From assembly GCA_964518575.1 (NCBI GenBank), contig CAZFGW010000002.1:61974-125973 (forward strand): a stretch of DNA of 64,000 nucleotides, given 5' to 3'. This DNA comes from an uncultured Eggerthellaceae bacterium (GTDB lineage Bacteria > Actinomycetota > Coriobacteriia > Coriobacteriales > Eggerthellaceae). A program made the translations under genes and the position numbers. Below the pieces are notes generated by a model that saw nothing but the letters and a program-made list of their open reading frames with translations, made no database searches and was not told the origin of the DNA. Positions 3,608-49,076 of the stretch are shown here, piece after piece (position 1 is the stretch's first letter; each line of letters opens with the position of its first letter).

Positions 3608-3619
3608 AAGGGATCTGCC

Positions 3620-4420: not shown

Positions 4421-5174
4421 ACGTGTCATACCCTGCATGGACGTTGATTCGGGACGGGTGGTCAAGGGCGTCAATTTCGTCAACCTGCGCGATGCGGGCG
4501 ACCCGATCGAGCTTGCTGCCCGCTATGACGAACAGCGCGCGGATGAAGTGATCTTTCTCGACATCACGGCAACCTCCGATGATCGCACAACGACGGTCGA
4601 TCTCGCCAGCCGTGCGAGCGAACAGCTGCATCTGCCCTATACGGTGGGCGGCGGGTTCCGCAGCGTGGCGGACATCCGCACGATGATCAGCGCTGGTGCC
4701 GACAAGGTCTCCATCAACTCGGCAGCCGTTAAGGACCCCAAGCTCATCACGATTGCTGCGCATGCGTTCGGAACGCAGGCGATCATCGTTGCAATCGATG
4801 CGAAAAGCGTCGCGGGTAACCCCAATGCGTGGGAGGTATACACTGCGGGCGGGCGCCATGCAACGGGCATCGATGCGGTAGCGTGGGCTCGACAGGCGGC
4901 GAAGTGCGGGGCGGGGGAGATTCTGCTCACCAGTATGGACCGGGATGGTTCGCGCGAAGGATTCGATTGCGCACTTACCCGCGCGGTTGCGCGTGCGGTC
5001 GACATTCCTGTGATCGCCAGCGGAGGTGTCGGCTCGATCGAGCATTTCAGTGAGGGCATCCTTGAGGGAGAGGCGGATGCGGTGCTCGCCGCGAGCGTCT
5101 TTCATTTTGGCGAAATGACCATTCGCCAGGTCAAAGAGAGCATGGCAAGTTACGGCATCCCCGTTCGCCTGTAA
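4410..5174 (+). CDS. hisF: Imidazole glycerol phosphate synthase, cyclase subunit
   Basis: 254-aa ORF with motifs [31 protein letters not shown] and ASGG. It overlaps hisA by 11 nt. Confidence 0.95.
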
Positions 5175-5201
5175 GAGCGTACGGCGAAGACAAGGTGGGG
5201 C

Positions 5202-5525
5202 ATGATGGTCGATATGAGCGAATTGCAATTCGATGAGCGCGGACTGATTCCCTGTATCGTGCAGGATGCGAACACGAACGAAGTGCTCATGATGGCATGG
5301 ATGAATGAGGAGTCCTTAAGACTTACCGAACAGATAGGGGAGACGGTGTTTTGGTCGCGGAGCCGCAAGGAGATCTGGCATAAAGGTCTGACCAGCGGCA
5401 ACACCCAAAAGCTTGTATCTCTCACGTATGATTGCGACGCGGATACATTGCTCGCGCGGGTCATACCAGCAGGACCTGCATGTCATACGGGTAACCGTTC
5501 TTGTTTCTTTAAGCAACTGATCTGA
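5202..5525 (+). CDS. hisI: Phosphoribosyl-AMP cyclohydrolase (no fused HisE domain)
   Basis: 107-aa ORF with motifs [20 protein letters not shown] and [10 protein letters not shown]. The exact start could be 5202, 5205 or 5214. Confidence 0.9.
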
Positions 5526-5606
5526 TACCCTGCGCGGAAGGTACGCGCGCTTCTCCTACGATGGGTCTATCGAAAAACCGTCCCGAACGAGACAGGGAGG
5601 ACTGCG

Positions 5607-6584
5607 ATGCCAACATCGAAGAGGAACATCTCACATGGCGAGATCGCCACATGCGTCAATGAAGCTTATGAGGCGCTCAAAGGGGTGAAGGGTGGACACA
5701 ACGCCAATTACATTCCCTATCTTGCGAATGTTGATCCGAATCTTTTCGCCATTAGCGTGTGCCTGCCCGACGGCAGTTGCATCTCGGTGGGGGATTGCGA
5801 CTACACCTTCGGCATCGAATCCATTTCGAAGGTTGCCACGGCGTTGCTCGTGATGCAGCAATCGGGTGCTGATTGCGTGCTGAACAAGATCGGTGCGAAT
5901 GCAACGGGGCTTTCGTTCAACTCCATCCTTGCCATCCTTCTGGAGGATCATGCACCCTCGACGCCACTCGTGAATGCGGGCGCCATTGCAGCATGCTCGC
6001 TTGTGGACCCCAAGGGTAACAAGGAGGCGAAGTGGAAGGCGATTACCGACAACCTCGAAGCGCTCTGTGCCTCAAAACTTACGCTGATCGATGAGCTCTA
6101 TGCTTCGGAGTCGAGCACGGATTTCAACAACCGCTCCATCGCGTGGCTTTTGAAGAACTATGGGCGCATGTACGACGATCCCGAGATGTCGCTCGACCTC
6201 TATACGCGGCAATGCTCGCTCGGGGTTACGCCGCGCGCGCTTTCGATCATGGCAGCCACCATTGCCAACGACGGCTTTAATCCCGTTACGAACAAGCAGG
6301 TATTCGATGAGAAATATGCATCGAAGATCACCTCGCTGATCACTACGGTGGGGCTCTATCAGAAAACGGGCGACTGGCTCTACGAGTCAGGCATTCCGGC
6401 GAAATCGGGTGTCGGCGGAGGAATCGTCGGGGTCATGCCGGGTATGTTCGGCATCGCGGCGTTTTCGCCTCCGCTCGATGAAGCGGGCAATTCGTACAAA
6501 GCGCAACTCGCGATCAAATACATCATGGAGAAACTCGACCTGAACATCTTCTCTGCAAGCAGACTGTGCATCGTGGAGGACTGA
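5607..6584 (+). CDS. glsA: Glutaminase A
   Basis: 325-aa ORF with the Ser-x-x-Lys box GIESISKV and motifs NAGAI and PAKSGVGGGI. Confidence 0.9.
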   Translation: MPTSKRNISHGEIATCVNEAYEALKGVKGGHNANYIPYLANVDPNLFAISVCLPDGSCISVGDCDYTFGIESISKVATALLVMQQSGADCVLNKIGANATGLSFNSILAILLEDHAPSTPLVNAGAIAACSLVDPKGNKEAKWKAITDNLEALCASKLTLIDELYASESSTDFNNRSIAWLLKNYGRMYDDPEMSLDLYTRQCSLGVTPRALSIMAATIANDGFNPVTNKQVFDEKYASKITSLITTVGLYQKTGDWLYESGIPAKSGVGGGIVGVMPGMFGIAAFSPPLDEAGNSYKAQLAIKYIMEKLDLNIFSASRLCIVED

Positions 6585-6604
6585 TCAGCGGCTGGTAGCA
6601 TCCA

Positions 6605-7099
6605 TCAGGAATCGAGACGGGCATCCTCCCGACGTTTGCGTCGCTCGAGGATGCGCACCATACGTTCTTTCGCATACACCCAGGTTTGCACGGCAGCGGT
6701 AACGATGCAGATACCGATGGCGATGCCTGCAATAAGCTGCAAGGTGGGGATGGCTTGTGCACTCATATCTACCCAATCGGCGTTCACGGCGGCGGACATG
6801 GTGTAGAAAAGTCCGCGTCCCGGTACAAGGGGGATGATGGCGATGATGAAGAACGTCGCAGTGGGTACGTGGTAGCGTTTCGCCGCCAATTCGGCATAGA
6901 TTGCTGCGAAGATGCTCGCGATCATGCTGGGTATGAACAAGCTTTTGAGCATGGCGTTGAGAGCCCAGTAGATGACCCATGTGACAAGACCGCCAAGCGA
7001 AGCGGGCAGGATGTAGCGGGGGCTCACGTTGAAGAAGAGAGAGAATCCCACGGCGCCAACGAATGCCATTGCAAGTTGCATGAGCGCGAAGGAGTCCAT
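6605..7099 (-). CDS. Threonine/serine exporter family protein, small (YjjB-like) subunit
   Basis: 164-aa all-transmembrane ORF whose start directly abuts the stop of 7100..7948. The pair resembles a split ThrE exporter. Confidence 0.72.
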   Translation of the reverse strand: MDSFALMQLAMAFVGAVGFSLFFNVSPRYILPASLGGLVTWVIYWALNAMLKSLFIPSMIASIFAAIYAELAAKRYHVPTATFFIIAIIPLVPGRGLFYTMSAAVNADWVDMSAQAIPTLQLIAGIAIGICIVTAAVQTWVYAKERMVRILERRKRREDARLDS

Positions 7100-7948
7100 C
7101 TACATCAGAGCTCCTGCAAGCCACATTGCGCCCATGAATCCGAGCGCGAGCGAAGTTGCCCAAAGAAGGCTTTCGACGAAACGCATCAAGCCTGAAAGCG
7201 TATCGCCTGATAGCATATCGCGCGTGGCGTTGGTCATAGCGACGCCGGGAATGAGAAGCATGATGTCGCCGATCATGACCATGTCCGACGAAATGCTGGG
7301 GATGACATGCGAAAGCGCGATGATGGCAAGACCCACGATAAATGAGCTCCCGAAGTTGAAGATCATCGTGTTGGGCGTCCATGGTTTGAAGTGTTTAATG
7401 GCGAAGCAGAGCACGATGGCGAACAGTGCAGACACGAAGCTATCCAGAACCGAGCCGCCGAAAAAGAGTGCGAAACCGCCTGCAGAAAGCACGCCTCCCA
7501 CATAGAGTGCCCATGAAGGCAACGGCTTTGTGATGATGATCTCAAGTTTGATGCGGATCTCTTTCGGTCCCAAATGCTCATGCCGGCATTCGCGACACAG
7601 ACGGGAAAGCGCTTCGAGATTACCGAAGTTGATACCGCCATCGCCGAAGACGCGGCGGGTCAAAGTATATTCGCGCCCGTTCGAGAGCGTCATCGTGGCA
7701 ACAATGGCGGAAGTGATGACGAATACATTCATCTTATAGGCGCCATACGAGCGCCCGGTCTTCACGAGTACTTCCTCAATGTAGTGCACATCCGCGCCGC
7801 ATTTGAGCATCGCCTCTCCGATATCCAAGAGGCAAGGGAACACATCAATGGCGAGCACTTCCTCTTCCGAGGGAGCGGGCAAGAGGCGCGCAACGTTGTT
7901 CTCATTCAGAAGCGCTTCAAGTGCTGAATATGATCCTGTGGCTTCCAC
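7100..7948 (-). CDS. Threonine/serine exporter family protein, large (YjjP-like) subunit
   Basis: 282-aa ORF with a soluble N-terminal part followed by about 5 TM segments. It is directly followed by the small subunit. Confidence 0.72.
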   Translation of the reverse strand: MEATGSYSALEALLNENNVARLLPAPSEEEVLAIDVFPCLLDIGEAMLKCGADVHYIEEVLVKTGRSYGAYKMNVFVITSAIVATMTLSNGREYTLTRRVFGDGGINFGNLEALSRLCRECRHEHLGPKEIRIKLEIIITKPLPSWALYVGGVLSAGGFALFFGGSVLDSFVSALFAIVLCFAIKHFKPWTPNTMIFNFGSSFIVGLAIIALSHVIPSISSDMVMIGDIMLLIPGVAMTNATRDMLSGDTLSGLMRFVESLLWATSLALGFMGAMWLAGALM

Positions 7949-8092
7949 GGTGGGCTCGTGTCGTCTTTCTTCTTGAGGGGTCTTTGAATATTCTCATTGC
8001 TTTTCGCATAAAAAGCTAGCATATTATCCGTATTGGTGCGGTAACAAGGTATCATTGCACTGCGTTCGTTAATTTTCGAGAAAGGTCGGATC

Positions 8093-8893
8093 ATGGGTTT
8101 TTTGAGTGGTAAAACAGCGTTGATCACCGGCGCGGGTATGGCGAAACTCAAAGACGGTTCGCCGGGCGCTATCGGCTATGGCATTGCCATCGCGTATGCG
8201 AAAGAGGGCGCGAACCTCGTGATTACGGGACGCAACGTCAAAAAGCTCACCGATGCGCAAGAGGAGCTTGAGAGCACCTACGGGATCAAGGTCCTTCCCG
8301 TTGCCGCTGACGTATCAGCTGGTGCCGACAACAAAGCGGTCGTGCAAAACGTGGTCGATAAGGCGATCGAGCAGTTCGGACGCATTGATGTTCTTGTCAA
8401 CAATGCACAGGCGTCAGCGTCGGGTGTTTCGATTGCAGATCACACGACCGACCAGTTCGATCTGGCGATTTATTCCGGTTTGTATGCAACGTTCTATTAC
8501 ATGCAAGCGTGCTATCCCTATCTGAAAGAGACCAAGGGTTCGGTTATCAATTTCGCATCGGGTGCAGGTCTGTTCGGAAATTACGGACAGGTCGCATATG
8601 CGGCGGCGAAAGAGGGAATCCGCGGTATGTCGCGCGTTGCCGCGACCGAGTGGGGTCCCGACGGCATCAACGTGAATGTGGTATGTCCGCTCGCGTGGAC
8701 TGCAGCGCTCGAGAACTTCAAGGATCAGTATCCTGAGGCATTCGAGGCGAACGTGCATATGCCCCCGATGGGACATTATGGCGATGTCGAAGCAGAGATC
8801 GGACGCGTCGTCGTTCAGTTGGCGAATCCCGATTTCAAGTTCATGAGTGGCGAGACGTTGACGCTCGAAGGCGGCATGGGCCAGCGTCCTTAA
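8093..8893 (+). CDS. SDR-family oxidoreductase
   Basis: 266-aa ORF with Gly-rich dinucleotide motif TGAGMA...GAIGYGIA, an NNAQ box and catalytic YAAAKEG (YxxxK). Confidence 0.85.
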   Translation: MGFLSGKTALITGAGMAKLKDGSPGAIGYGIAIAYAKEGANLVITGRNVKKLTDAQEELESTYGIKVLPVAADVSAGADNKAVVQNVVDKAIEQFGRIDVLVNNAQASASGVSIADHTTDQFDLAIYSGLYATFYYMQACYPYLKETKGSVINFASGAGLFGNYGQVAYAAAKEGIRGMSRVAATEWGPDGINVNVVCPLAWTAALENFKDQYPEAFEANVHMPPMGHYGDVEAEIGRVVVQLANPDFKFMSGETLTLEGGMGQRP

Positions 8894-8944
8894 TGTATCT
8901 TCTTCGCATACATGGTATGCAACGAAAATCGATCATGTTACGGT

Positions 8945-8974
8945 GGCGGGCGAGATTCATCTCGCCCGCCAATG
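8945..8974 (+). repeat. Palindromic repeat, copy 1
   Basis: Perfect 11-bp stem GGCGGGCGAGA / TCTCGCCCGCC with TTCA loop (8945-8970), followed by CCAATG-type tail (CGCCCGCCAATG). It lies about 50 nt after the SDR stop. Confidence 0.85.
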
Positions 8975-9048
8975 GTTCATCCATCGGCTCTGGAGATACC
9001 GATGACCGGTTCTGGTTGGGACGATTCATTAATCACAAAAATCGTTCT

Positions 9049-9086
9049 GGTGGACGTTGGGGCGAGATTCATCTCGCCCGCCAATG
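9049..9086 (+). repeat. Palindromic repeat, copy 2
   Basis: GGTGGACGTTGGGGCGAGATTCATCTCGCCCGCCAATG. The stem is 8 bp (9060-9079). The core and tail match copy 1 and the 5' flank matches copy 5. Confidence 0.85.
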
Positions 9087-9170
9087 CAACGACCCCAATC
9101 ATGAAACATCGGGCAACCGCGTTACACCAACGGTGATCCCCAAACGCAACAATCCCAACAACGCATCATC

Positions 9171-38150: not shown

Positions 38151-39264
38151 TCTATCGACAATTGAAAATCCCGCAGCGAAAAAGCGGATCGCCATTTTAG
38201 GGTCCACAGGATCGATCGGCACGCAGACGCTCGATGTTGCTCGCGCACATCCCGATAAGCTGAATGTTGTCGGTCTTGCGTGCGCGACTCAGGTCGATCT
38301 CATGAAAGAGCAAGCACGCGAGTTCGATAATGTGGTGCTCGCGGTTGGCGAAGAGGAAGCGATCGGGCTTGCCCTGCGCGATGATGTCGATCTCGTCGTG
38401 AATGCGATGGTGGGCGCTGCTGGTCTGCGCGCGAGCTATTACACGCTGCTCTCGGGCAAAACGCTCGCGCTTGCGAACAAGGAATCGCTCGTAGTAGGTG
38501 GAGATCTGCTCATGCCTCTGGCGCGCAAAGCGAACAATCTCGTGCCCATCGACTCCGAGCATGGAGCCATCTTCCAGTGCTTGATCGGCGAGAATCCCCG
38601 TGAGGTTGCACGTCTTTGGGTCACCGCTTCCGGGGGACCTTTCAGACACAAAACGCGCGACGAGCTCAAAGATGTGACGGCACAGGATGCGCTCAAGCAC
38701 CCGACGTGGAACATGGGCGCGAAAATCACCATTGATTCCTCAACGCTTATGAATAAAGGTCTTGAGGTGATCGAGGCGCACCATTTGTTCGATATGCCTT
38801 ACGATCGCATCGAGGTTCTCGTGCAACCCCAGAGCGCGATCCATTCGATGGTCGAGTTCATTGACGGTTCGGTGAAAGCGCACTTGGGCACGACCGATAT
38901 GCGTATCCCGATCCAATTCGCACTGAGCTACCCTGAGCGCTGGGACGCTCCCGTCACGCCGCTTGATTTCAAAACGCTCGGTTCGCTCGAGTTCGGCACG
39001 CCCGATCTCGAGACGTTCAAGTGCTTGGCGCTCGCCATCCGTGCGGGACGTACGGGCGGCACGTTGCCCTGCGTTATGAATGCTGCCAATGAAGTGGCAG
39101 TCGCGTCGTTCCTTGCTGGTGAATGCGGATTCTTGGATATTGCCGATTGCGTGGAACATGTCATGGAGGCGCATTCCACGCAACCAGTTTCAAGCATTGA
39201 GCAGCTCATGGACATCGATGCTGATGCCCGGCTCCAGGCTGCTCAGTTCCTCGCACGCATCTAA
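38137..39264 (+). CDS. dxr: 1-deoxy-D-xylulose 5-phosphate reductoisomerase
   Basis: The ATG at 38137 lies 10 nt after GGAGGA. Motifs ILGSTGSIGTQTLDV, LANKESLV, DSEHGAIFQC and NKGLEVIEAHHLF. Confidence 0.93.
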   Translation: MPCSDLSTIENPAAKKRIAILGSTGSIGTQTLDVARAHPDKLNVVGLACATQVDLMKEQAREFDNVVLAVGEEEAIGLALRDDVDLVVNAMVGAAGLRASYYTLLSGKTLALANKESLVVGGDLLMPLARKANNLVPIDSEHGAIFQCLIGENPREVARLWVTASGGPFRHKTRDELKDVTAQDALKHPTWNMGAKITIDSSTLMNKGLEVIEAHHLFDMPYDRIEVLVQPQSAIHSMVEFIDGSVKAHLGTTDMRIPIQFALSYPERWDAPVTPLDFKTLGSLEFGTPDLETFKCLALAIRAGRTGGTLPCVMNAANEVAVASFLAGECGFLDIADCVEHVMEAHSTQPVSSIEQLMDIDADARLQAAQFLARI

Positions 39265-41958
39265 GTTCGCATCCAAGCACGCGTCTTTGCTCGGTGCCGC
39301 TCCGATGGCTCGCTGCGCCTCGGAATCTACGGCATCCGGATTGGTGGGAATGTCACCTCCTTTCTCGACGGTCTCAGTCGGTGCAGTGTCGCCTGCCTTA
39401 TCAGCAGGAGCCGTTGGCGCGGTCGTATCGGTCGTTTCGGGTGATCCCGTTACTCCTGTCTCTTTCATCTGCGCATTCTTCGCTGAAGAAGCAAGGCGTG
39501 CGTCTTGTTCAGATGGCACGTTCAGATCGCTTTCGCGCGTATTGGCATCCTCGGTAAAAGGCGAGCGCACCGAAGGGCATCCTGTAGAGAAGCCCTCGGA
39601 ATCGGTAACCGCGCCCACTTCCCATGCGCGAAGGTCGGCAACAAGGTTTGAGCACATGCCGAACATCTGGTGCATGTTGGTGACCTGCGTGGTGTTCCAG
39701 TCCTCGATTCCGTCGATAGCGCCCAAGGCAATACACCCGTTGAACGCGTAGGCGCAACTGCTCAGATGTTCGGTGTGCCAAGCACGGGTATCGAGGTGAG
39801 CGAGACGCGAACAGTTGTTGAACAGCATCGCGATACTTATGCACGATGTGCCTACGAAGGTATCGGGCAGTGCAAGGTGTTCAAGGGATACACAGTCGCT
39901 GAATACCGACTGGAGCGAGGTGACCTTTCCGGTATCCCACGACGCAAGGTCGAGTGCGGAAAGCGAGCTGCATCCAGCAAACATGCTCTCCATCGTACTG
40001 ACCGCTGATGTATCAAGCATAGACACATTGATGTCCACAAGTACAGCGCAGTCTTTGAAGGCAGACGCCATTGAGGTGACCTGAGCGGTGGTAAAGGAAT
40101 GGATATCGATGCTTCGTATATGGGTGCACCCTGAGAAAAGATGCGACATATCGCTCACCGTTGTCGTATCGAGTGCGCTCAGATCAGCGGTTTCAAGATT
40201 GCTTGCATCAGCGAAGAAGTTGCGCAGCGTTCGTGTCGTTATGGGAAGGTCGACGTTTTCGGACACGACTGCGCGAAGTGCGCCCACATACGGCTTCCAG
40301 GGCAACGCACCTTGAGCGAAGTCAGCAGTGTTTCCCTCCATACCGACGAAGGTATGGGAAAGGAGACGCTCTCCGTGAGCATCAGGTACTTCTCCACGCC
40401 CGAAGGCAAGGATGTACCCTGCTTCCTCCGATCCGTAGAGCGCAGCATAGGCACGGCTTTCGCTTAAGCAAGTCCAGCGAACCACCTTGGTACCCGTTTG
40501 ATAGAGCTCCCTCGTTTTGTCCGTTGCACTACGTGGATCGAATCCGTGCCCACCTCCGTCCATGTACCAAAGTCCATCAGAGCCTACCACGGAGGTAGGA
40601 GCGGGAAAGAGGGTGAGGGTGGACGCGTAGAACGTCGATGGAATAATGATCTCGGTAAGGGCGCTACACCCCGTGAGCGCATTCGCATCATAGATCGTAT
40701 CGGGGATGTTCCACGAGCTGAAATCGATGCGCTCCAAAGAAGAGCAACCGCTCCAAGCCCTCCACGTCGTATCGAAGGACGCTCCGAGCTGCCAGCTGCC
40801 CATTCCCTTGATTTCTCTCAAGCGTGAGCAGCCATCGAACAATTGCTGTATGGAGGTCAGCTTGGGAAGAACCCAGCCCGTTACATCGATCGAGTGCAGG
40901 TGGGAGCATCCGGCGAACGAGGATGTCATCAACGTGAAGCGCGCAGTGTTCCATCCCGTAAGATCAAGGTGTTCCACGAGCTCATTGCCGCGAATGATGC
41001 CGCTTATCTGCGTGCAGGAGGACATGTCCCAGTTTTCTATGAATGAAAGCCCCTCCAAGCAATAGCAGCTCTCAAAGGTGTTCACGAATGTCTCGACGTT
41101 TGAAGTGTTCCACGAAGAGCAATCTCCGATCGATCGCAGTTCATAGGCATTGCTGAACGCTCGGTTGAAGTTCTTAACCCGCGAGACATTCCAGCCGGAT
41201 AAATCTCCCACTGAGCACAAAGAAGTGCATCCGCTGAAAAGGTTCGCCATGTTCTCGACCGAAGCGACATTCCACGAGGAAAGGTCACCTCGGGTAAGCT
41301 GCGAGCAGGAACTGAACATGCCTTGCAATGTGATCGCACTGCTCATGTCCCAAGGCGCAAGCGGAGAGATGTCAGTGATGCTGCCATTCGAGAACATCGA
41401 GCTGAAGTCCGTGCACGCGCTTACATCCCATGACGTAAGCTCTTTGATGTCGCCGTTTATACCGCTTAAGGCGAACGCCGAGCACATGCTTGTCGTTCTC
41501 GATGTGTCAAGCAGCGCGAGGTCATAGCGAGTGCAATGATTCAAGGAGGCGAACCAGAAGTCGAGAACCGGCGGCGAGATCGGGTCTATGACTTTGACCG
41601 CCGTGATATTGTTGGCATGAAAGCGCCAGGGAATGTCGGTTGTCCGCTTGAACCGTTTTTGATCGAGAGCGGTATATCCTTGCGTGAGCGTTGCATTCTC
41701 ATAAGCGTCGGGGATCTCGTCTCCCGCCCCGAAGACCAGCGTTTTTCCGCCATAGACTGCGGCGTAGATGGGCTTGTTCTCATCGAGCGCGGCAAGATCG
41801 AAATCATTCGAAATCATATGCTCGGCGGTCAACCAGGCGAATGCCTTTTGAGCACCCAAGCTTGCACCGATAATAACAAGCATGAGAAAAACGATGAGCA
41901 CGCTTAGTCGCACCCGCCTTCGTTTCGACAACGTCTGTTCTGCCATGAAAGTGTTCAT
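39190..41958 (-). CDS. BspA-type (DUF285-like) leucine-rich-repeat secreted protein with a TasA-like N-terminal signal
   Basis: 922-aa ORF. It has two blocks of ~25-aa repeats of the form W(D/N)(V/T)S.V.(N/D)M..MF..C..L. The N-terminus is KRRRVRLSVLIVFLMLVIIGASLGAQKAFAWLTAEH. The C-tail is Thr/Pro/Ala/Asp-rich and I saw no anchor motif. Confidence 0.75.
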   Translation of the reverse strand: MNTFMAEQTLSKRRRVRLSVLIVFLMLVIIGASLGAQKAFAWLTAEHMISNDFDLAALDENKPIYAAVYGGKTLVFGAGDEIPDAYENATLTQGYTALDQKRFKRTTDIPWRFHANNITAVKVIDPISPPVLDFWFASLNHCTRYDLALLDTSRTTSMCSAFALSGINGDIKELTSWDVSACTDFSSMFSNGSITDISPLAPWDMSSAITLQGMFSSCSQLTRGDLSSWNVASVENMANLFSGCTSLCSVGDLSGWNVSRVKNFNRAFSNAYELRSIGDCSSWNTSNVETFVNTFESCYCLEGLSFIENWDMSSCTQISGIIRGNELVEHLDLTGWNTARFTLMTSSFAGCSHLHSIDVTGWVLPKLTSIQQLFDGCSRLREIKGMGSWQLGASFDTTWRAWSGCSSLERIDFSSWNIPDTIYDANALTGCSALTEIIIPSTFYASTLTLFPAPTSVVGSDGLWYMDGGGHGFDPRSATDKTRELYQTGTKVVRWTCLSESRAYAALYGSEEAGYILAFGRGEVPDAHGERLLSHTFVGMEGNTADFAQGALPWKPYVGALRAVVSENVDLPITTRTLRNFFADASNLETADLSALDTTTVSDMSHLFSGCTHIRSIDIHSFTTAQVTSMASAFKDCAVLVDINVSMLDTSAVSTMESMFAGCSSLSALDLASWDTGKVTSLQSVFSDCVSLEHLALPDTFVGTSCISIAMLFNNCSRLAHLDTRAWHTEHLSSCAYAFNGCIALGAIDGIEDWNTTQVTNMHQMFGMCSNLVADLRAWEVGAVTDSEGFSTGCPSVRSPFTEDANTRESDLNVPSEQDARLASSAKNAQMKETGVTGSPETTDTTAPTAPADKAGDTAPTETVEKGGDIPTNPDAVDSEAQRAIGAAPSKDACLDANLDACEELSSLEPGISIDVHELLNA

Positions 41959-41961
41959 GCA

Positions 41962-42615
41962 CTACGAGCTCACGCTTGCCGCCGCGGTGATGGCAGCCTT
42001 CTGTCCGAGATATGCGTCGATTGCGCTCATCGCGTTGGCGAAGCCCTCTGATTGGATTGCAAAGGCATTGACGTCAATGCTCGTCGCGGAAACACCGATG
42101 TTCTGTATCAGATTCGCCAGCGTCACCGAATCGAAGAGCGGGGGCGTGACGGCATTCGGCGCGAGGAGCTCGTCATAGACGTAGGTGTACGTTCTGAATC
42201 CATCCTTCAAGGTTGCATCTCCTTTGGCATGCCATCCGGTATTTACCGTATATGAGAACAGATCGGCATTTTCACCGTGTGTCAGCGAGCCTTCCGCATT
42301 GAGGGCATCTCCGGTGAACACGGGCACTTTTACGGTCGCAGCAACGTAGGCGCCAAGACTTCCCGTATTGCGCACGAGCGGGTCTTTGGCAACGGTTTGA
42401 GCGGGTGCAAGACCTTTGGCGGCGTTCGCTTCGAACGAGGGCTCCGAAAGCTCGATGGACAGATCGGTGTTCAAGGTGAACGGGTTGCTCAAAAAGGCGT
42501 CATCGGTGAGATAGGCGAGCGCGCTTGAAATGCTGAGCGTGCAGGCAAGAGCTCCGCACGCGATCGCGGTCGGGACTTTCCAGGACGGTTTATGAGCTAG
42601 AGGGTTTTCTTGCAT
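41962..42615 (-). CDS. TasA/camelysin-like secreted protein with a SipW-cognate-type signal peptide
   Basis: The ATG at 42615 follows AAGGAG, giving 217 aa. The signal ends SSALAYLTDDAFLSNPFTLNTDLSIEL; compare B. subtilis TasA ...GGGTWAAFND...GTLDL. KDPLVRNTGSLGAYV motif present. Confidence 0.7.
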   Translation of the reverse strand: MQENPLAHKPSWKVPTAIACGALACTLSISSALAYLTDDAFLSNPFTLNTDLSIELSEPSFEANAAKGLAPAQTVAKDPLVRNTGSLGAYVAATVKVPVFTGDALNAEGSLTHGENADLFSYTVNTGWHAKGDATLKDGFRTYTYVYDELLAPNAVTPPLFDSVTLANLIQNIGVSATSIDVNAFAIQSEGFANAMSAIDAYLGQKAAITAAASVSS

Positions 42616-43151
42616 GGTTCTCCTTTCGAAGGGATGTTCATAGTGATGAGGTCCTCTGTTGCGCGAGCGCGAGAGGTGATGACGACCGGGATGAGGAGAA
42701 GGGAAAGCAGACCAAGGAACACGAATCGGTATCGCTCGATCCACATGAGGATGAATCCGAGATTCGGAAGTGTTAACACCGCCTTTCCTTTCACAGCGTC
42801 GTACGGTACGGGAAGGGGATCGGCTTCGCTATTCGCATCTCCTTTCGTCTCGAGCAAAGCACGATCGGTATCATTCCCAACAACCCGGTGGGTCACGATA
42901 TGGGTGTCAAGTGCGTTGCTTTCAAAAGCAACGATGTCGTTTTCGCTGAGATCCCCACCGCTTGTGCGTGCGTCAACGTAGACGAGCGATCCAACGGGAA
43001 CCGCGGGGGTCATCGAGCCCGTGAGAACGGCGTAGGGCATGATGTGGAATATGCCGGGCACGACCGTTGTTGCAAGCGCGAACACAAGCGGCAGGGCAAC
43101 GCAACCAATAAGGCAAAAGAGGACTTTGCGAAGGCGGGTCATGGTAGTCAC
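42597..43151 (-). CDS. sipW: Signal peptidase I, SipW (archaeal/ER, S26B) type
   Basis: 184-aa ORF with Ser box LTGSMTP, His box VTHRVV, the TKGDAN motif and a C-terminal TM. The GTG start overlaps the adhesin stop (GTGA). Confidence 0.8.
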   Translation of the reverse strand: MTTMTRLRKVLFCLIGCVALPLVFALATTVVPGIFHIMPYAVLTGSMTPAVPVGSLVYVDARTSGGDLSENDIVAFESNALDTHIVTHRVVGNDTDRALLETKGDANSEADPLPVPYDAVKGKAVLTLPNLGFILMWIERYRFVFLGLLSLLLIPVVITSRARATEDLITMNIPSKGEPCKKTL

Positions 43152-46100
43152 GGACGCATCCTTCCCGATGTCCTGACCGGTTTTCTCGCACAGCTGCGCT
43201 GGGTTTTCCTTGCCATGCGGCTAAAGAAGAGGGAACATGCGAGCGCGAGCGCGGTCGAGAGTGCGAGGATTGCACCGAGCAGATATGAATCGCCCGTCTG
43301 TGGGAGTGAGCTCAACGTTTTGGGAGTGCGCGACGCATCATCGTTAGGCGTCGGGCGTGTAAACACGGATTGCTCCGCGCTCTCGGCGTCCTCATGTGCG
43401 GCAATCTCTTCATCACCAAGGAAGAGCTTCTCGAAAACCACGAAGTGCTCGTCACTGAGGTCATCTCCCGTTACCGCGAAAGGTATGTCGAGGGTGCCAT
43501 TTGCGCTCTCGGGCGTGAACGAGACTGTTGTGGTGAGAGGATTACCCTCTTCATCAAGATAGGGCGTTGCCTGCGCCGTCTTTGATCCCTCTGTCGGGGC
43601 GAGCGTCATGAGTGTTCCTTGCATGGTGTAGGTGCGCCCTGCTTGAACGTTGGCATACTCAACAGTGTCGACGATATCGACCTTCTTGATCGTTGACGTC
43701 GGTTGTTGCGGTGCTATGTGGTCGGCACTCTCGGCGATGTGGGCGTGCGTTTTAAGGGTAGGTGCTGCGATGCGCACCGTTTGAGCTGCGTTGTTGGGGT
43801 CGGAGTGCTCGAGATGGATTTGCCCGTCGCTGAGAAGCGTTTCGAACACCACGATCTGGCTTTCAGGCTCAAGCTGCGTTGAGTCGAAGTCAAATGCAAC
43901 GGAGGTGATACCGGAGGCGTTTTTCGCTGTGAAGGTCTGCGAAGCAGTAATGGGCGTTCCCGTTTCGTCTAACAAACTTGTTGTTGTTTCGTCGTGCGGG
44001 TTTTTGAGCGCGAGCGACCCGGAAACGGTATATTCCCTGCCTGGTTCGAGATTGCAATAGGAGATAGTGTCGATCAGGTGCGTCTCGGGAGATGCAACAA
44101 TCTCCTTATCGTTGGTGATGGCGCTTGCCGCATAGGTCTCGATGAGGGGCGCATTCACGAAAAGCGTCTGATCGGGGTCAGATAGGTCTTCGTGGGTTGC
44201 AACAACCTCACCCGTTGTCTCGTCGATGAGTCTTTCAAATACGACGATCTTTTGCCCGGCGAGTGAGCGCGTATCGAGGGTGAACGCCATATCAACGTAG
44301 CCGCTTGCTTGCTCGCAGGAAAACGTTTTCGACACCGTTGCCCCAGGTATATCCGTCAAAGGCTGTCCGTCCCCAAAGCGGTAGAGCGTACCTGTGAGCA
44401 CATAGGTCTTACCCTGCGTGAGACCGCTATATTCGACGCGGTCGAGAAGGCTTGCCGTACTTGATGCGGAGAGATACTTGCTCGCATCCTGAGCGTTTTT
44501 GGCAGAGGTATGCAGTGATGGCGTCGGCTTCAGCCGATCGATGACCGTGCCAGCAAAGATGTTGTATGCATCGCGGTTGACCTTGATGTCATCGAGTGTG
44601 ATGAGTTCGAGATCGTGGTTTTTGGTACAGGGGAGTTCTTCGATATGATAGGTGTCAAAGGGAAGCGCTCCCACGGTATCGTTTGGCTGTGTGATGCCGT
44701 TTTCCGCTTTTCCGAACCATACGCCTGCATGCTCGTCGAGCAGCTCCTCGTCAACGGTTCCATCTGCTTTGAGCGCGCGATCATTGGCATTGGTGGATGC
44801 CGTGTGGGGATGCCACGCTGCTGAGGTATCGAATTTCCCCATCTCGCCCGATAAAACGACATGCTGCTCGCCCGTGGTCTTCGAGGTAATGAGGAAGGGG
44901 ATGCCCTCCATGCGTTCTTGGTTCGTTTCTCTGACCTTGATGAATGAGAAGTCGCCGCGCTTCACGCGATTCTGCGCAGCGTTTTGCTGGGTAAAGGGCA
45001 CGATCTTGCCGTTCTCGGTGATGTCGAAGACGCGCTCTGCGGTATCGGTGAGCAGATACCCATCTCCTGCGGCAACTTCGCGAAGAAGATAGCTTCCATA
45101 GGGAAGAAGATCATCGGTGCTCATCGCGCAGCCGTCCTGCACGCAGATCGTGGCGACGACGGCGTCCGTTGGATAGAAAATGCCGCCAACGCAAACGGGG
45201 TGAGCGGAGCGATTGACGATCTCGAACGTTGTTCCGTCCAGCGTAGCAGCTCCGAGCGGATGAGGCAGGAGGCTTTCCGCGTCAAGCTTATCAATCCGCA
45301 CGCCGCCACGGATGGCATGATTGGAAACTTGAGGAGCGGCAAACGAATGGATCGATTCCGCGGTGCCTTCCGGCTCGATCTTCTTCAAAATGACAGTGGG
45401 GTCGAGAAGATAGCCACAGGGCGGCTTCGTTTCCTGAATACTCACGGTACCGAGCGGCATGCAGGGCGCTCCCGTGCTATCCAAATACAGCTCGTCTCCG
45501 CCGATGAGGTGGTCGTCGTCAAGAAGAATCGCTCCGGCATCATCCGTTTTGAAGTGCCAGGTTCGCGTCGGCGTGTGGTTTCCAAGCGCCTCGGCTCCGC
45601 CGTCCAGATAGGCATCGTAGTGCTCGATCTTGAACTCCGCACCCGAAAGGAGAGCGTTGCCTTGAGGGGCGCTTGTTGCTGATTGCGCATCCAGCTTGTT
45701 GAGGAGAAGGTCGATGCGTGCACTTTGCGGAGTATCGGTGACCGAAAGCGCGCTTGTGTTGCCCGCCGTGACATCCACGCGATGGATGCGCTCGTCAACT
45801 GCGAAGCCGCGCCCGATCACCGAGCCGACATTCTCCTTGAGGTAATACGTACCCGGCTGCAGATCGGGGGACGTGCCGTGCCCGTTCGCGTCAAGGGTGA
45901 TGGTTGAAAGATACTCGGTGCAGGCAGGATTGGTGAAGATGTCGTAAGCGATTCCCTCCATGGTATAGAGGTGGTTGCCCTCTGAAAGCGCAGGGTTGCC
46001 CGACTGTTTTGTCAGATCGATCTTACCTTTCGCCTTGATGGCGAATTTGTAGACGCCCACGCCCGGTTGGTTCGCAACGGCGGGACCGACGAAGCCGAGT

Positions 46101-47632
46101 ACGATATAGGGCGTGGGATCAGCGGTGTTGAGATCGAGAACGCGGAGCTTCATCGTGCCTTCGGTGGGATCCGGTCCGGTGGGTAGGGCATTGGTCGTAT
46201 GACAACATTGCAGACCGAAGTGAGCATTGCCATATCCACTGTCCCAGTTGCAATTGATCGGCCACCGCTCCGAGTGCCAATACTGACCATTGCTCACATG
46301 CTCCCCGAACCAGAAGACATAGTTGAAGTAATTACGCGATGCCTGAGAGCCATTCGGGGTGACCGTGAAGTTCGAAACCGCTCCTTCGGCAACACCGTTC
46401 CAGGTAGCGTTGTTGTTCCATGCGATGTACTCGTAGAGGCTGTCGGGATCGTTGACCCATGAGTAGCAATACGCTCCGCTTGCGATGCATGCCTGCCACC
46501 CGAAATCGCCTTCGCTCACATTTGGCCACCAGTAGTTGAAGTCGGTGTAGATATCGAAGGTCTGCCCGATCTTGAGCGCACTGAGATCGAGTTTGTCGAA
46601 GACGACCTCGGGCACGAAGGAGAGTGCTTGCGAGGGCATATCGCCCGCAGCGGGTGTCGTGAAGTACTCAAGCAGATGGGGTGCGTCGATACTGATATCG
46701 ACCGAGGTAAGCGTGAGGGGAGCATAGAAAAGCTCAAGGCAGCCCGTACGCGCGTCATACGCGGCATTGTTTCCTTCGATAAGGTCGATCTTTGAATCGC
46801 TGCCGTTGATCCTGACACTAAGGTCATTAAGCGAGATGAAATGGCTGTATTTAGGCTGGGTGAGGGGAATGCTGAGCGATATATCGAACGTCGACGCTCT
46901 GATCGAATGCGGCTGTTCCGTTTGCACACGGGGGTCATGGCACTCGATGCTGATGTCGACATCGCACGTGCTCTTCCCTCGCACATCGCTCAGGGCGAGC
47001 ATCTGTGCTTGAAGGGCAAACGCAATCTCTTCGCCATCGCGTTCGTAGAGCTCTTTTGGCACATAGATGATGCCGCGATCCTTGTCCATATAGGGTCCAT
47101 CCACGACATTGCCTGAGTTGTCGAGGGTGGTGAAGGCGACGTCGGTGATCGTGGTGATCCCCTTGATGGTGGAAGGGCTTGCATACGCGATGAGATAGGA
47201 AGACGCTTCACCCGGATCCAGAAGATCAGCCGTTAGGTCGAACTGCCCTGCGATCGCCTCCATCCAGCCGCTGTCGAAAAACAGGCTCTCGAAGGTCGTA
47301 TCTGTGCCTTTGAGCGCGCGGTCGACCAGCGTGAGCTTGAGATACAAGGTATGACCCGTATCGCGGAACTTTTCGCGCTGAAACCCGAGCGCGCTTATGA
47401 GTGGGTCGAGGAGATTCTCGTTCGCTGCAAGCGCGTCTTTGGCATCCCCGTCAAGATTATCGCGAAGGTAATCGTTGCGCTGCTCATACACGGGCGGCGC
47501 GATATCGAGCTCTTCGGCGTATGCCGTTGAAGCTCGGGGAACGAGGGGGATTGAGAGCGACAAGGCGCAGATGAGCAGGATGCAGATGAGATGCTGGATC
47601 GCCTCAGTGCGCCCTCTTGCCGTGGTTCTCAT
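43148..47632 (-). CDS. LPXTG-anchored giant adhesin: novel N-terminal domain, Cna-B/SpaA-like Ig domains, three VaFE/Thr-Gln ester-bond repeats
   Basis: The ATG at 47632 follows AAGGAG, giving 1494 aa. Signal peptide ...TAYA-EE. Three ~125-aa repeats at 43358-44530 contain (I/V)VVFE(R/T/K)L and H.D..(D/N/S)..Q. LPQTG lies at 43292-43306, followed by a TM and a basic tail. Confidence 0.8.
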   Translation of the reverse strand: MRTTARGRTEAIQHLICILLICALSLSIPLVPRASTAYAEELDIAPPVYEQRNDYLRDNLDGDAKDALAANENLLDPLISALGFQREKFRDTGHTLYLKLTLVDRALKGTDTTFESLFFDSGWMEAIAGQFDLTADLLDPGEASSYLIAYASPSTIKGITTITDVAFTTLDNSGNVVDGPYMDKDRGIIYVPKELYERDGEEIAFALQAQMLALSDVRGKSTCDVDISIECHDPRVQTEQPHSIRASTFDISLSIPLTQPKYSHFISLNDLSVRINGSDSKIDLIEGNNAAYDARTGCLELFYAPLTLTSVDISIDAPHLLEYFTTPAAGDMPSQALSFVPEVVFDKLDLSALKIGQTFDIYTDFNYWWPNVSEGDFGWQACIASGAYCYSWVNDPDSLYEYIAWNNNATWNGVAEGAVSNFTVTPNGSQASRNYFNYVFWFGEHVSNGQYWHSERWPINCNWDSGYGNAHFGLQCCHTTNALPTGPDPTEGTMKLRVLDLNTADPTPYIVLGFVGPAVANQPGVGVYKFAIKAKGKIDLTKQSGNPALSEGNHLYTMEGIAYDIFTNPACTEYLSTITLDANGHGTSPDLQPGTYYLKENVGSVIGRGFAVDERIHRVDVTAGNTSALSVTDTPQSARIDLLLNKLDAQSATSAPQGNALLSGAEFKIEHYDAYLDGGAEALGNHTPTRTWHFKTDDAGAILLDDDHLIGGDELYLDSTGAPCMPLGTVSIQETKPPCGYLLDPTVILKKIEPEGTAESIHSFAAPQVSNHAIRGGVRIDKLDAESLLPHPLGAATLDGTTFEIVNRSAHPVCVGGIFYPTDAVVATICVQDGCAMSTDDLLPYGSYLLREVAAGDGYLLTDTAERVFDITENGKIVPFTQQNAAQNRVKRGDFSFIKVRETNQERMEGIPFLITSKTTGEQHVVLSGEMGKFDTSAAWHPHTASTNANDRALKADGTVDEELLDEHAGVWFGKAENGITQPNDTVGALPFDTYHIEELPCTKNHDLELITLDDIKVNRDAYNIFAGTVIDRLKPTPSLHTSAKNAQDASKYLSASSTASLLDRVEYSGLTQGKTYVLTGTLYRFGDGQPLTDIPGATVSKTFSCEQASGYVDMAFTLDTRSLAGQKIVVFERLIDETTGEVVATHEDLSDPDQTLFVNAPLIETYAASAITNDKEIVASPETHLIDTISYCNLEPGREYTVSGSLALKNPHDETTTSLLDETGTPITASQTFTAKNASGITSVAFDFDSTQLEPESQIVVFETLLSDGQIHLEHSDPNNAAQTVRIAAPTLKTHAHIAESADHIAPQQPTSTIKKVDIVDTVEYANVQAGRTYTMQGTLMTLAPTEGSKTAQATPYLDEEGNPLTTTVSFTPESANGTLDIPFAVTGDDLSDEHFVVFEKLFLGDEEIAAHEDAESAEQSVFTRPTPNDDASRTPKTLSSLPQTGDSYLLGAILALSTALALACSLFFSRMARKTQRSCARKPVRTSGRMRP

Positions 47633-47915
47633 GAATTGCTCCTTTCCGCGAGGTTCTCGCTGCCATGGATGAAACAGGTGGTAAGGCACAACCTTAGAGA
47701 CGCCATCTGGCGGAATGTTTGCGCGCATCTTGCGTCCGCGCTGCAAAAATCAAAGGGATAACAGGTGTGTTCTTTGTAAAAATCAACGGTTTTCGAAGCG
47801 AAACGCACCGATCTCTATAGAAAACCTTGCAGATTTCTGATAATCTCTGCGAAAAATCGAACACGGGTATGCGCGCGGGTGGAGAGGCGCGCAAAAACGT
47901 ATAAGGATCTGAGCC

Positions 47916-49076
47916 ATGAACATCATCTTTATCATCTTTTGCGCGGTGATCGTGATAGGGTTTATCGTTCTCATCCATGAGGGCGGGCACTATCTTGCGG
48001 CGCGCGCGTTTAAGGTACGGGTCACCGAGTTCATGCTCGGTTTGCCCGGACCCAGTATCGGGTTTACGAAAGGTGGGACGCGTTTCGGTATTACTGCTGT
48101 TCCGCTCGGTGGCTATGCCAAGGTGTGCGGCATGGAAACCGGACCGATGAGTCCGCACTTAAAGCCGGTTCTTGCTTGCGTATATAAGCGTGGGACGGTG
48201 CTTATGGAAGAGGTTGCCGCCGCGTGTGGTATCACCGACGAAGAGGCGTACGATGCGCTTGAAGAGCTGGTTGAATGGGGCTCGATCGATGGTCCCACCC
48301 GGGCGGACAAACATAATACCTATCGCACACCGGCGCGCGCCATGACTGCGCAAAGCGTTGATAAAAGTGTTCGCGAGAGCGCGGGCGAAACCTCCCAAAC
48401 CGCCGAGACCGCCCAAACCTCACAAACTGCGCTTGCCTCGCCGCATAAGGCGCGTGCAGGAGAGCCCCTTTCCATCGCGGATATCGATGCGTTTTTCGCA
48501 AGCGAATATGCAGTTCAGTATCGAAGCTTGCCATTTTGGAAGCGCAGCGTGATTCTGCTTGCCGGAATTGCTGTGAACCTTCTGTTCGCGATCATCGCAT
48601 TCGTGCTCGTCTACTCCGTGATCGGCATTGACATTGTCCATCCTCAAACGGGCGAGATGGCACACATGACGCTCAATCCTATTCAGTCCATACAGGCGGG
48701 ATTCGGTGCCATCGTGATGACATTCGAGTCCATCCTCGGATTGTTCAATCCCGAGACCGCCGCGCAGACGGTATCGAATTCGACGAGTATCGTCGGAATC
48801 GCAGTGATGTCGGCTGATTTCTTCGCACGCGGAGTGGCGGACGCACTGTTCTTCATGGCGATCGTGTCGATTTCCATCGGATTGATGAATCTTTTGCCGA
48901 TTCCGCCGCTCGATGGAGGTCGGTTCGTGGTTGAGATCATCCAGAAGGTCTCGCGACGCGACGTTCCCATGAAGGCGCTCGGGTATATCTCCTTTGCGGG
49001 GATGGCGCTGTTTTTGTGCTTCTTCGTGTTCATGTTGAATCAGGATATTCAGCGCTACATCTTCGGAAACTGGTAG
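47916..49076 (+). CDS. rseP: Site-2 (M50/RseP-family) intramembrane metalloprotease, apparently PDZ-less with a large insertion
   Basis: 386-aa ORF with HEGGHYLAAR (HExxH), PLGGYAKV and NLLPIPPLDGG motifs. Confidence 0.85.
   Translation: MNIIFIIFCAVIVIGFIVLIHEGGHYLAARAFKVRVTEFMLGLPGPSIGFTKGGTRFGITAVPLGGYAKVCGMETGPMSPHLKPVLACVYKRGTVLMEEVAAACGITDEEAYDALEELVEWGSIDGPTRADKHNTYRTPARAMTAQSVDKSVRESAGETSQTAETAQTSQTALASPHKARAGEPLSIADIDAFFASEYAVQYRSLPFWKRSVILLAGIAVNLLFAIIAFVLVYSVIGIDIVHPQTGEMAHMTLNPIQSIQAGFGAIVMTFESILGLFNPETAAQTVSNSTSIVGIAVMSADFFARGVADALFFMAIVSISIGLMNLLPIPPLDGGRFVVEIIQKVSRRDVPMKALGYISFAGMALFLCFFVFMLNQDIQRYIFGNW

Follow-up and report, generated by a model that had tools for sequence, protein, structure and literature searches.

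A window of 64,000 nucleotides (64 kb) from contig CAZFGW010000002.1 of an uncultured Eggerthellaceae bacterium, with a GC content of about 55%, contains an operon that pairs a SipW-type signal peptidase with a candidate fibre subunit of the TasA/BsaA superfamily. All four genes of the operon are located on the minus strand and encode, in the order of transcription, an LPXTG adhesin (43148-47746; 1532 amino acids in the longest open reading frame, ORF), the SipW-type signal peptidase I (42597-43151; 184 amino acids, GTG start with an alternative ATG at 43142), the candidate fibre subunit (41962-42615; 217 amino acids, ATG start directly preceded by the ribosome binding site AAAGGAGA) and a protein with PARCEL/DUF285 and BspA-type leucine-rich repeats (LRR; 39190-41958; 922 amino acids), which is referred to as the PARCEL protein in the following. 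The adhesin and peptidase genes overlap by 4 nt, the peptidase and subunit genes by 19 nt, and a gap of 3 nt separates the subunit gene from the PARCEL gene; this spacing indicates that the four genes between 39190 and 47746 form one operon. In our judgement, the chances are about even that this operon encodes a SipW-primed fibre, whose subunits would be joined by donor strands and locked by isopeptide bonds, and which would be capped by the PARCEL protein as an adhesin.

The candidate fibre subunit and its N-terminal strand

The 217-amino acid protein starts with a SipW-type signal peptide (residues 1 to 34, 42514-42615, minus strand), which ends in SISSALA and is followed by YLTDDAFLSNPFTLNTDLSIEL, with the predicted cleavage site located between ALA and YLTD. 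The model for SipW-cognate signal peptides, TIGR04088, scores 19.6 on the N-terminal 74 amino acids (cut-off 19) and 17.8 on the full-length protein. Ala34 is kept in 89 of 93 relatives (alignment A3), and hhalign pairs this position of the family with Ala27 of Bacillus subtilis TasA, the residue that precedes the mature protein. The TasA sequence used for this comparison was verified against the structures 8aur and 5of1; mature TasA comprises residues 28 to 261, and chain 8aur_A begins at residue 28. An earlier note on this DNA, made from the sequence alone, had claimed that the signal region of the 217-amino acid protein mirrors the signal and cleavage region of TasA, and the pairing of Ala34 with Ala27 together with the TIGR04088 score bears this out.

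Membership of the protein in the TasA/camelysin/BsaA superfamily (PF12389, TIGR04090, NF046066) is supported at the level of profiles over its N-terminal third. The comparison of alignment A3 with TasA yields a probability of 95% (E 4e-8, 74 columns), and the comparison with an alignment of 30 TasA/CalY sequences (A7) yields 96.5% (E 1e-9, 80 columns). The best NCBIfam match of the protein is TIGR04090, the 'BsaA family SipW-dependent biofilm matrix protein', and all its Pfam and NCBIfam matches below threshold span residues 13 to 95, approximately. Among the 93 relatives, 71 match PF12389 and 81 match TIGR04090 at E <= 1e-3; TIGR04088 is matched by 68 and the TasA model by 16 of them. A word-indexed search retrieved 15 homologues, and an exhaustive profile search revealed 9116 cluster representatives of the family at E <= 1e-3, 3335 at <= 1e-10 and 362 at <= 1e-30, most of which matched over the full length; short proteins with a single domain are more common than any other architecture. 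An exact-sequence look-up found neither the window protein nor P0183 on record, and P0001, which is 99% identical, leads to the same locus in a near-identical metagenome contig (L017). In an AlphaFold2 (AF2) model calculated with a deep alignment, which has a predicted local distance difference test score (pLDDT) of 90.3, the protein consists of a helix formed by residues 14 to 34, which corresponds to the signal and ends at Ala34, a coil (35 to 53), a beta-sandwich (54 to 188) with a pLDDT of more than 90, and a C-terminal helix (195 to 216).

The predicted mature N-terminus reads Y35-LTDDAFL-S-N44-P-F46. Residues 35 to 52 (YLTDDAFLSNPFTLNTDL; 42460-42513, minus strand) are predicted to form a donor strand, as this segment aligns in the hhalign comparison with the TasA donor strand, residues 28-38/39-47 (PMC9674648); in both AF2 monomer models, it is a coil. 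The strand contains Asn44 (42484-42486), and conservation points to a putative catalytic Glu58 (42442-42444) and a putative acceptor Lys77 (42385-42387) in the following segment (42385-42444, minus strand). Asn44 is conserved in 92, Phe46 in 81, Glu58 in all and Lys77 in 91 of the 93 relatives. The same combination of Asn, Glu and Lys (N-E-K) occupies the aligned columns of 160 out of 163 cluster representatives, the best-scoring ones of the exhaustive profile search, which were inspected. TasA carries Ala37, Glu50 and Lys68 at the positions of Asn44, Glu58 and Lys77, respectively; the alanine in the Asn44 column fits the lack of an isopeptide bond and the published absence of the triad in TasA.

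Such a triad has been described for the biofilm protein BsaA of Clostridium perfringens, which requires SipW for its secretion and polymerization (PMC7395162). The BsaA polymer is locked by an intermolecular isopeptide bond between Asn35 of the donor strand and Lys74, with Glu56 acting as catalyst; oligomers are lost in the N35A, K74A and E56A mutants, and Val33 and Phe37 of the strand pack into the core of the neighbouring subunit (PMC11580942). The one published survey lists 'over 100' proteins with the triad. The sequence L42-S-N44-P-F46 matches the BsaA pattern V33-x-N35-x-F37 (PMC11580942), and the spacing between Glu and Lys is 19 residues here and 18 residues in BsaA (Glu56 to Lys74). 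A homologue search starting from a bona fide TIGR04090 member, which is encoded in a Lachnospiraceae metagenome-assembled genome (MAG; L010, 10798-11418), found no named BsaA. Judged by its N-E-K triad, the 217-amino acid protein has more in common with the BsaA type of C. perfringens than with TasA, and with its conserved donor Asn and the Glu and Lys in the core it is a putative member of the 'exchange-and-lock' type, in which Asn44 and Lys77 would form the bond.

The SipW-type signal peptidase

The 184-amino acid protein contains the motifs GSMTP with Ser46 (codon 43014-43016, minus strand), VTHRV with His88 (42888-42890) and KGDAN with Asp105 (42837-42839), and has hydrophobic segments at both the N- and the C-terminus, the latter of which, FVFLGLLSLLLIPVVIT, is a transmembrane (TM) segment. 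It passes the archaeal/ER-type model TIGR02228 with 69.9 bits (cut-off 51.85, E 2e-19) and fails both the bacterial LepB-type model TIGR02227 (26.3, cut-off 47) and the Bacillus SipW equivalog model NF046067 (68 bits, cut-off 190). Ser46-Met47, His88-Arg89 and Lys103-Gly104-Asp105-x-Asn107 are invariant in eight peptidase orthologues. Thus, motifs and scores assign the protein to the ER/archaeal-type signal peptidases I (SipW type, MEROPS S26B), and it is not an orthologue of Bacillus SipW. From known work on B. subtilis SipW, we take it that catalysis depends on Ser and His and that the Asp of the GDN box belongs to the arrangement replacing the Ser-Lys dyad; the enzyme is predicted to be active. 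The overlap of the two genes and the cognate signal motif suggest that it probably cuts the adjacent TasA-like precursor.

Two further claims of the earlier note can be maintained on these grounds. The peptidase encoded at this position of the minus strand is of the ER/archaeal rather than the LepB type, and family-level matches, the hhalign comparisons and the relatives in other Eggerthellaceae support the view that a SipW-type peptidase is paired with a TasA/camelysin-like protein in an adhesin cluster of a high-GC Gram-positive bacterium. In the syntenic Eggerthellaceae loci (orthologues from L001 to L007), the identity of the peptidases is just 25-32%, compared to 52-59% for the TasA-like subunits; the peptidase thus changes much more rapidly than the protein it presumably cleaves.

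A donor-strand motif at the N-terminus of the PARCEL protein

The PARCEL protein consists largely of repeats: DUF285 (PF03382) matches six stretches with 243.8 bits (E 2.7e-73), the repeat model TIGR02167 scores 152.4 bits (E 1.4e-45) and LRR_5 scores 50.9 bits (E 1.8e-13). The protein ends in an acidic tail, and neither an LPXTG motif nor a TM anchor was found at its C-terminus or at those of the other PARCEL proteins inspected. At the N-terminus (41788-41958, minus strand), residues 1 to 41 form a TM signal ending in AQKAFA, and residues 42 to 57, WLTAEHMISNDFDLAA, mimic a donor strand, with Asn51 encoded at 41806-41808. The junction of AQKAFA with WLTAEHMISNDFDL is in register with that of SSALA and YLTDDAFLSNPFTL in the fibre subunit, including the Asn at position 10 of the mature protein.

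The regular expression used for the donor strand, A[YWF][LFMI][TSVA][DAGSE]x5Nx[FLMVI], was applied to the window and 14 loci, and among their 2349 six-frame ORFs its matches are restricted to TasA-like proteins and the PARCEL proteins encoded downstream of them. An in-register motif directly follows the TM segment in the PARCEL proteins of the window and of L002, L003, L005, L006, L007 and L019. Conservation of the PARCEL proteins extends 12 to 14 residues past the predicted cut and comprises the Asn at position +10, which is found in seven of eight orthologues, and hydrophobic residues at positions +2, +12 and +14. Using hhalign, the eight PARCEL N-termini could be aligned with the TasA-like family with a probability of 94.6% (E 7e-8), and a second comparison gave 93.3% (E 3e-7); in this register, Ala41, Trp42, Asn51 and Phe53 of the PARCEL protein correspond to Ala34, Tyr35, Asn44 and Phe46 of the subunit.

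Both components are also found fused to each other. All ten long relatives of the 217-amino acid protein that were tested against Pfam have an N-terminal TasA-like domain fused to DUF285/LRR_5. Of the 163 top representatives of the family, 51 comprise at least 330 amino acids, and 21 of these 51 resemble the PARCEL repeats of the window. In L004 and L020, such a TasA-like::DUF285/LRR fusion has as its neighbour a short subunit whose donor strand is identical to its own or nearly so. A different cargo occurs in L016, where a DUF6273 protein carries the donor strand AYFTDSDSVENRFHV, compared to AYFTDSASVENWFHV in its TasA-like neighbour; this protein passes TIGR04088 with 23.8 bits and is matched by a hidden Markov model (HMM) built from the donor strand alone (E 4e-5). 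The PARCEL protein is regarded as a candidate fibre-tip adhesin.

Proposed fibre model and alternative explanations

For the four-gene operon, we infer peptidase cleavage, polymerization, formation of an isopeptide bond and docking of the PARCEL protein in the following way. The operon would constitute a module for adhesion and fibre formation, with the peptidase and the 217-amino acid protein at the core of assembly. The SipW-type peptidase would use its Ser46/His88 dyad to cleave the 217-amino acid protein after Ala34, thereby exposing YLTDDAFLSNPF at its N-terminus, and would probably also cleave the PARCEL protein after Ala41, thereby exposing WLTAEHMISNDF. The 217-amino acid subunits would polymerize head-to-tail by insertion of the freed N-terminal strand into the sandwich of the next subunit, and each junction would be locked by a spontaneous intermolecular isopeptide bond between Asn44 of the donor and Lys77 of the acceptor, with Glu58 acting as catalyst, as it is the case for BsaA. 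Since the PARCEL protein has a donor strand with an Asn but neither an acceptor domain nor an anchor, it is proposed to dock at that end of the polymer where an acceptor is still free; its strand would fill the terminal groove there and be locked, resulting in a fibre tipped by an LRR adhesin. The LPXTG adhesin, which has an ordinary signal and whose sortase would be encoded elsewhere, would be a co-regulated partner rather than a substrate of SipW. It is conceivable, though on balance rather doubtful, that the signal and the Asn-bearing donor strand together constitute a portable covalent plug-in tag, and that proteins carrying the tag only, such as the PARCEL protein and the DUF6273 protein of L016, are cut by SipW and isopeptide-locked into the groove of a TasA/BsaA-type polymer.

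A number of observations weigh against this fibre model. The 217-amino acid protein itself stays below the cut-offs of PF12389 (17.5 bits, cut-off 22.5, E 0.0039) and of TIGR04090 (32.2 bits, cut-off 60); the relationship to TasA/camelysin that the earlier note expected HMM searches to reveal is thus seen in the N-terminal 74 amino acids, which pass TIGR04088, and in the majority of the relatives, but not in the full-length protein. The alignment with TasA/CalY is confined to the 75 to 80 N-terminal columns, approximately, which cover the signal, the donor strand and the first strands of the core. Foldseek searches of the PDB with two AF2 models (pLDDT 76 and 90) gave no match at E <= 1e-3, and TasA (5of1/8aur) was outside the top 50 for both models; the best matches were generic Ig-like, cohesin, CBM3 and PapD-like folds with TM-scores of 0.49 or less, with a PapGII pilin domain among the weak ones. 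A structural likeness to TasA, for which the earlier note had proposed a comparison of predicted structures, can therefore not be claimed. Neither the protein nor the profiles A1 and A3 retrieved anything relevant in sequence searches of the PDB. Furthermore, the spacing between Asn and Glu is 14 residues here and 21 residues in BsaA, and the equivalence of the two triads is based on published residue numbers, on motif context and on the spacing between Glu and Lys. Lastly, the window does not encode a small anchored TasA-like protein of the A5 family described below, and hence no base or anchor of the fibre is evident.

Other points concern the role of the PARCEL protein, and most of them lend weight to a different explanation, according to which the 217-amino acid protein forms a homopolymeric BsaA-like fibre. 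The PARCEL protein would then carry a SipW-type signal simply because it depends on the same dedicated peptidase, and would be released or held non-covalently outside the fibre. TIGR04088 is by definition a signal peptide model that reaches past the cleavage site, and the PARCEL motif could reflect recognition by SipW only. An HMM restricted to the 16 residues of the mature strand matches the PARCEL N-termini of Eggerthellaceae weakly (E 2-34), and the PARCEL protein of the window is absent from the matches of an HMM comprising signal and strand; both results indicate that the hhalign score derives in part from the TM segment. In L001, the PARCEL protein carries Ser at the position of the Asn, and in C. 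perfringens, BsaB and BsaC are encoded in the bsaA operon yet are not cross-linked to BsaA (PMC11580942). However, this explanation does not account well for the conservation that continues in register for 12 to 14 residues past the cut with an Asn at +10 in all but one of the eight orthologues, for PARCEL proteins that have no anchor, for the wide distribution of TasA-like::PARCEL/LRR fusions, and for the near identity of the strands of the L016 cargo protein and its TasA-like neighbour; it is considered unlikely, although it deserves serious attention.

BsaB, which forms dimers only, also provides the precedent for a more improbable view, in which the 217-amino acid protein is a non-polymerizing adaptor or cap that accepts or donates a single strand and forms a 1:1 or short complex. 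The presence of a single TasA-like gene and the lack of an anchored base subunit in the window are in agreement with it; however, the protein combines a donor strand with a full N-E-K triad, a combination that is present in the polymerizing BsaA and absent from BsaB, and the short single-domain form is the most frequent one in the family. Practically no probability is assigned to the view that the 217-amino acid protein is a camelysin-like (Peptidase_M73) cell-surface metalloprotease. Its sole Pfam match is indeed PF12389, the 'Camelysin metallo-endopeptidase'; however, this match spans just the signal peptide and the first strands, and, according to PMC11580942, CalY was probably misidentified when it was given the M73 label. 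The protein contains neither an HExxH nor another zinc motif, and none of the residues His8, His113 and His129 is conserved, and this view was therefore rejected.

The LPXTG adhesin and the surroundings of the operon

The first protein of the operon contains three TQ ester (VaFE) domains (E 2.6e-78) and three SpaA domains (E 3.7e-20) according to Pfam, and the NCBIfam model VaFE_rpt matches with 268 bits (E 1e-80). Its translation probably begins with the ATG at 47632, which gives the N-terminus MRTTARG and agrees with an alignment of orthologues (A4); the same alignment reveals a signal of the ordinary A-x-A type, with the sequence TAYA in front of EE. A regular expression scan identified an LPQTG sorting motif at 43292-43306 (minus strand), followed by a hydrophobic segment and a basic tail, which is the sole LPXTG motif in any long ORF of the window. 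Neither a sortase TLxTC motif, a sortase gene nor a second LPXTG protein was found in the 64 kb. The adhesin was also considered as a SipW substrate or as the base accepting the fibre, and was rejected for both roles: neither TIGR04088 nor the HMM of alignment A3 matches, the hhalign probability is 0.8%, and the signal is of the AxA type.

Residues 80 to 540 of the adhesin, approximately (about 46000-47400, minus strand), are conserved in L001, L002, L003 and L005 and have no Pfam match. The invariant motifs of these N-terminal 460 residues, approximately, are YCYSW..DP.SLYEY, GLQC.H and ANQPGVG.YKF. In L004, L015, L016 and L019, this part of the adhesin encoded at the corresponding position is matched by the Pfam thioester model TED_2 and contains the motif AYC..P.K. 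The N-terminal region of the window's adhesin may be a divergent thioester domain.

The operon opposes the flanking housekeeping genes, which are located on the plus strand, with frr, uppS, cdsA and dxr on one side and rseP and ispG on the other. A scan of 38800-48200 for promoters and terminators gave counts that were no higher than in shuffled sequence. The gene dxr (plus strand, end at 39264) and the PARCEL gene (minus strand, end at 39190) converge and overlap at their 3' ends by 75 nt (39190-39264), and this overlap is likewise called in L017. Between 36831 and 39264 on the plus strand, the longest ORFs of cdsA (439 amino acids) and dxr (442 amino acids) begin well upstream of the orthologue matches; the gene caller of L017 gives 422 amino acids for cdsA and 375 for dxr, and the true starts are probably internal.

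Related loci in Eggerthellaceae and Clostridia

The close relatives of the locus all belong to uncultured Eggerthellaceae (Coriobacteriia), many of them from catalogues of mouse-gut MAGs. The cassette of LPXTG adhesin, SipW, TasA-like and PARCEL genes is found between rseP and dxr in L001, L002, L003, L005 and L017; in the syntenic cassettes, the adhesins are 41-43%, the SipW proteins 25-32% and the TasA-like proteins 52-61% identical. In L004, L016 and L019, the SipW/TasA-like pair follows an LPXTG adhesin with thioester (TED), SpaA and TQ domains and a sortase gene. A TED-SpaA-TQ adhesin also precedes the TasA-like gene in L015, a short contig on which no sortase or SipW gene was called. Gene neighbourhoods in which BsaA/TasA-like genes are mixed with LPXTG, SpaA, signal peptidase and sortase genes have been noted before (PMC11580942), in a study that mentions neither Actinomycetota nor DUF285, LRR or BspA proteins. 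In the literature that was covered, searches linking SipW to DUF285/PARCEL/BspA proteins or to Eggerthellaceae found nothing.

Small proteins of the A5 family are encoded directly after the TasA-like gene in the Eggerthellaceae MAGs L006 (10691-11539) and L007 (10730-11578) and in L015 (4051-4878), L016 (8831-9451), L020 (6271-7053) and L021 (1022-1612). Their core aligns with the TasA-like sandwich (hhalign against A3, 89.9%, E 1.8e-6), the donor strand is absent and Lys77 is replaced by Arg. Several of them have a C-terminal TM segment or a sorting-like signal with the sequence QTGD or KTGD, and the A5 proteins are candidates for anchored base subunits.

In L006 and L007, genes for T2SSF, a T2SSE/PilT-like ATPase, short pilin-like proteins and a transglutaminase-like protein (3200-9100, approximately) directly precede the SipW, TasA-like and PARCEL genes. 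This layout parallels C. perfringens, in which the secretion of Bsa reportedly depends on type IV pilus genes (PMC11580942). The Lachnospiraceae locus L010 (9412-20247) encodes SipW and three tandem TasA-like paralogues, the third of which has a near-threshold LPXTG anchor; the next gene encodes a protein of 2458 amino acids with six SpaA domains as well as Flg_new and DUF285 repeats. Thus, paralogous subunits and PARCEL repeats co-occur in Clostridia as well.

Comparison with characterized fibre systems

Among the most similar known systems is the sipW-bsaA-bsaB-bsaC operon of C. perfringens (PMC7395162, PMC11580942). In both cases, a SipW-type gene is located directly upstream of a gene for a TasA-superfamily subunit of about 23 kDa, the donor Asn is part of a V/L-x-N-x-F motif, and Glu and Lys are 18 to 19 residues apart; in related loci, LPXTG, SpaA and sortase genes are found nearby, and genes resembling those for type IV pili lie next to sipW in L006 and L007. 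In contrast to the clostridial system, the operon described here is found in an actinobacterium, its subunit scores below the TIGR04090 cut-off, and Asn and Glu are 14 instead of 21 residues apart. The partners BsaB and BsaC (VWA) are absent, and a PARCEL/LRR protein that mimics the donor strand is found instead; the operon of the window further includes an LPXTG T-Q-ester adhesin and has no adjoining type IV pilus genes.

The B. subtilis tapA-sipW-tasA operon likewise encodes a dedicated ER-type peptidase with two substrates in the same operon, which are predicted ones here, and the cleavage site and donor strand can be aligned. TasA polymerizes by donor-strand exchange (PMC9674648), and TapA complements TasA through an N-terminus that imitates the donor strand of the latter (PMC9674648, PMC10151520). 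As a functional analogy, both operons would therefore encode an accessory protein with a donor-strand-mimicking N-terminus, namely TapA in B. subtilis and the PARCEL protein here. The two operons differ in gene order; the Asn is replaced by Ala37 in TasA, neither the Glu nor the Lys is a conserved residue of the TasA/CalY family, and the body of the domain has no similarity that is detectable by sequence or by Foldseek. The earlier note had stated that a TapA-like gene is missing from the locus. No TapA-related Pfam or NCBIfam annotation was found in the operon, whose proteins were not compared directly with TapA, and the accessory protein is an LRR adhesin of 922 amino acids rather than a TapA homologue, so that the statement holds at the level of homology; however, the PARCEL protein resembles TapA in its SipW-type signal and in the donor-strand mimic behind it.

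The sipW-tasA-calY system of Bacillus cereus with its accessory factor CapP (PMC4292775, PMC13082335) also produces SipW-dependent, sortase-independent heteropolymeric filaments of the TasA family. It relies on two full-length paralogous subunits and a chaperone-like protein, and has neither an adhesin cargo that only donates a strand nor an N-E-K lock. Archaeal filaments such as the Sulfolobus thread (PMC9715654) and Pyrobaculum AbpA (PMC9245690) are assembled by donor-strand complementation, which is reinforced by isopeptide bonds in the threads; hosts and machinery differ, and the likeness is an analogy of mechanism only. Chaperone-usher pili of type 1 and P (FimH/PapG) consist of a donor-strand stalk with an adhesin at the end that is joined by the same strand-groove contact, as it is proposed here; however, the adhesin of the present system would donate the strand, no chaperone or usher would be involved, the host is a monoderm, and a covalent lock is proposed.

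The earlier note had suggested that the locus is an uncharacterized composite module. The pair of peptidase and subunit genes is indeed sandwiched between the genes for an LPXTG adhesin and an LRR protein; however, operons combining BsaA/TasA-like genes with LPXTG, SpaA, signal peptidase and sortase genes are known (PMC11580942). The core pair of SipW and TasA-like protein belongs to the known biofilm-fibre systems, whereas the plug-in adhesin itself has not been described before. What is new is the PARCEL adhesin with its donor-strand tag, together with the wide occurrence of TasA-like::PARCEL fusions and the finding of such a system in Eggerthellaceae.

Implications for surface fibres of gut bacteria

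SipW/TasA-type fibres are mainly known from Bacillus and Clostridium, in which they serve as homopolymeric scaffolds of biofilms. If the proposed model is true, the 'exchange-and-lock' chemistry of BsaA would extend to Actinomycetota of the mammalian gut, and a testable role could be assigned to the very common, poorly understood DUF285/PARCEL/BspA-LRR surface proteins without a recognizable anchor and to their frequent fusions with TasA-like domains. Should the more tentative idea of a portable tag also be correct, Gram-positive gut bacteria such as Eggerthellaceae, Lachnospiraceae and others would possess tipped or decorated adhesive fibres that are independent of sortases and exist in fused and split versions. 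A short, self-ligating donor-strand tag would furthermore be of interest to protein engineers as an analogue of the SpyTag type, by which arbitrary passengers could be attached to a fibre.

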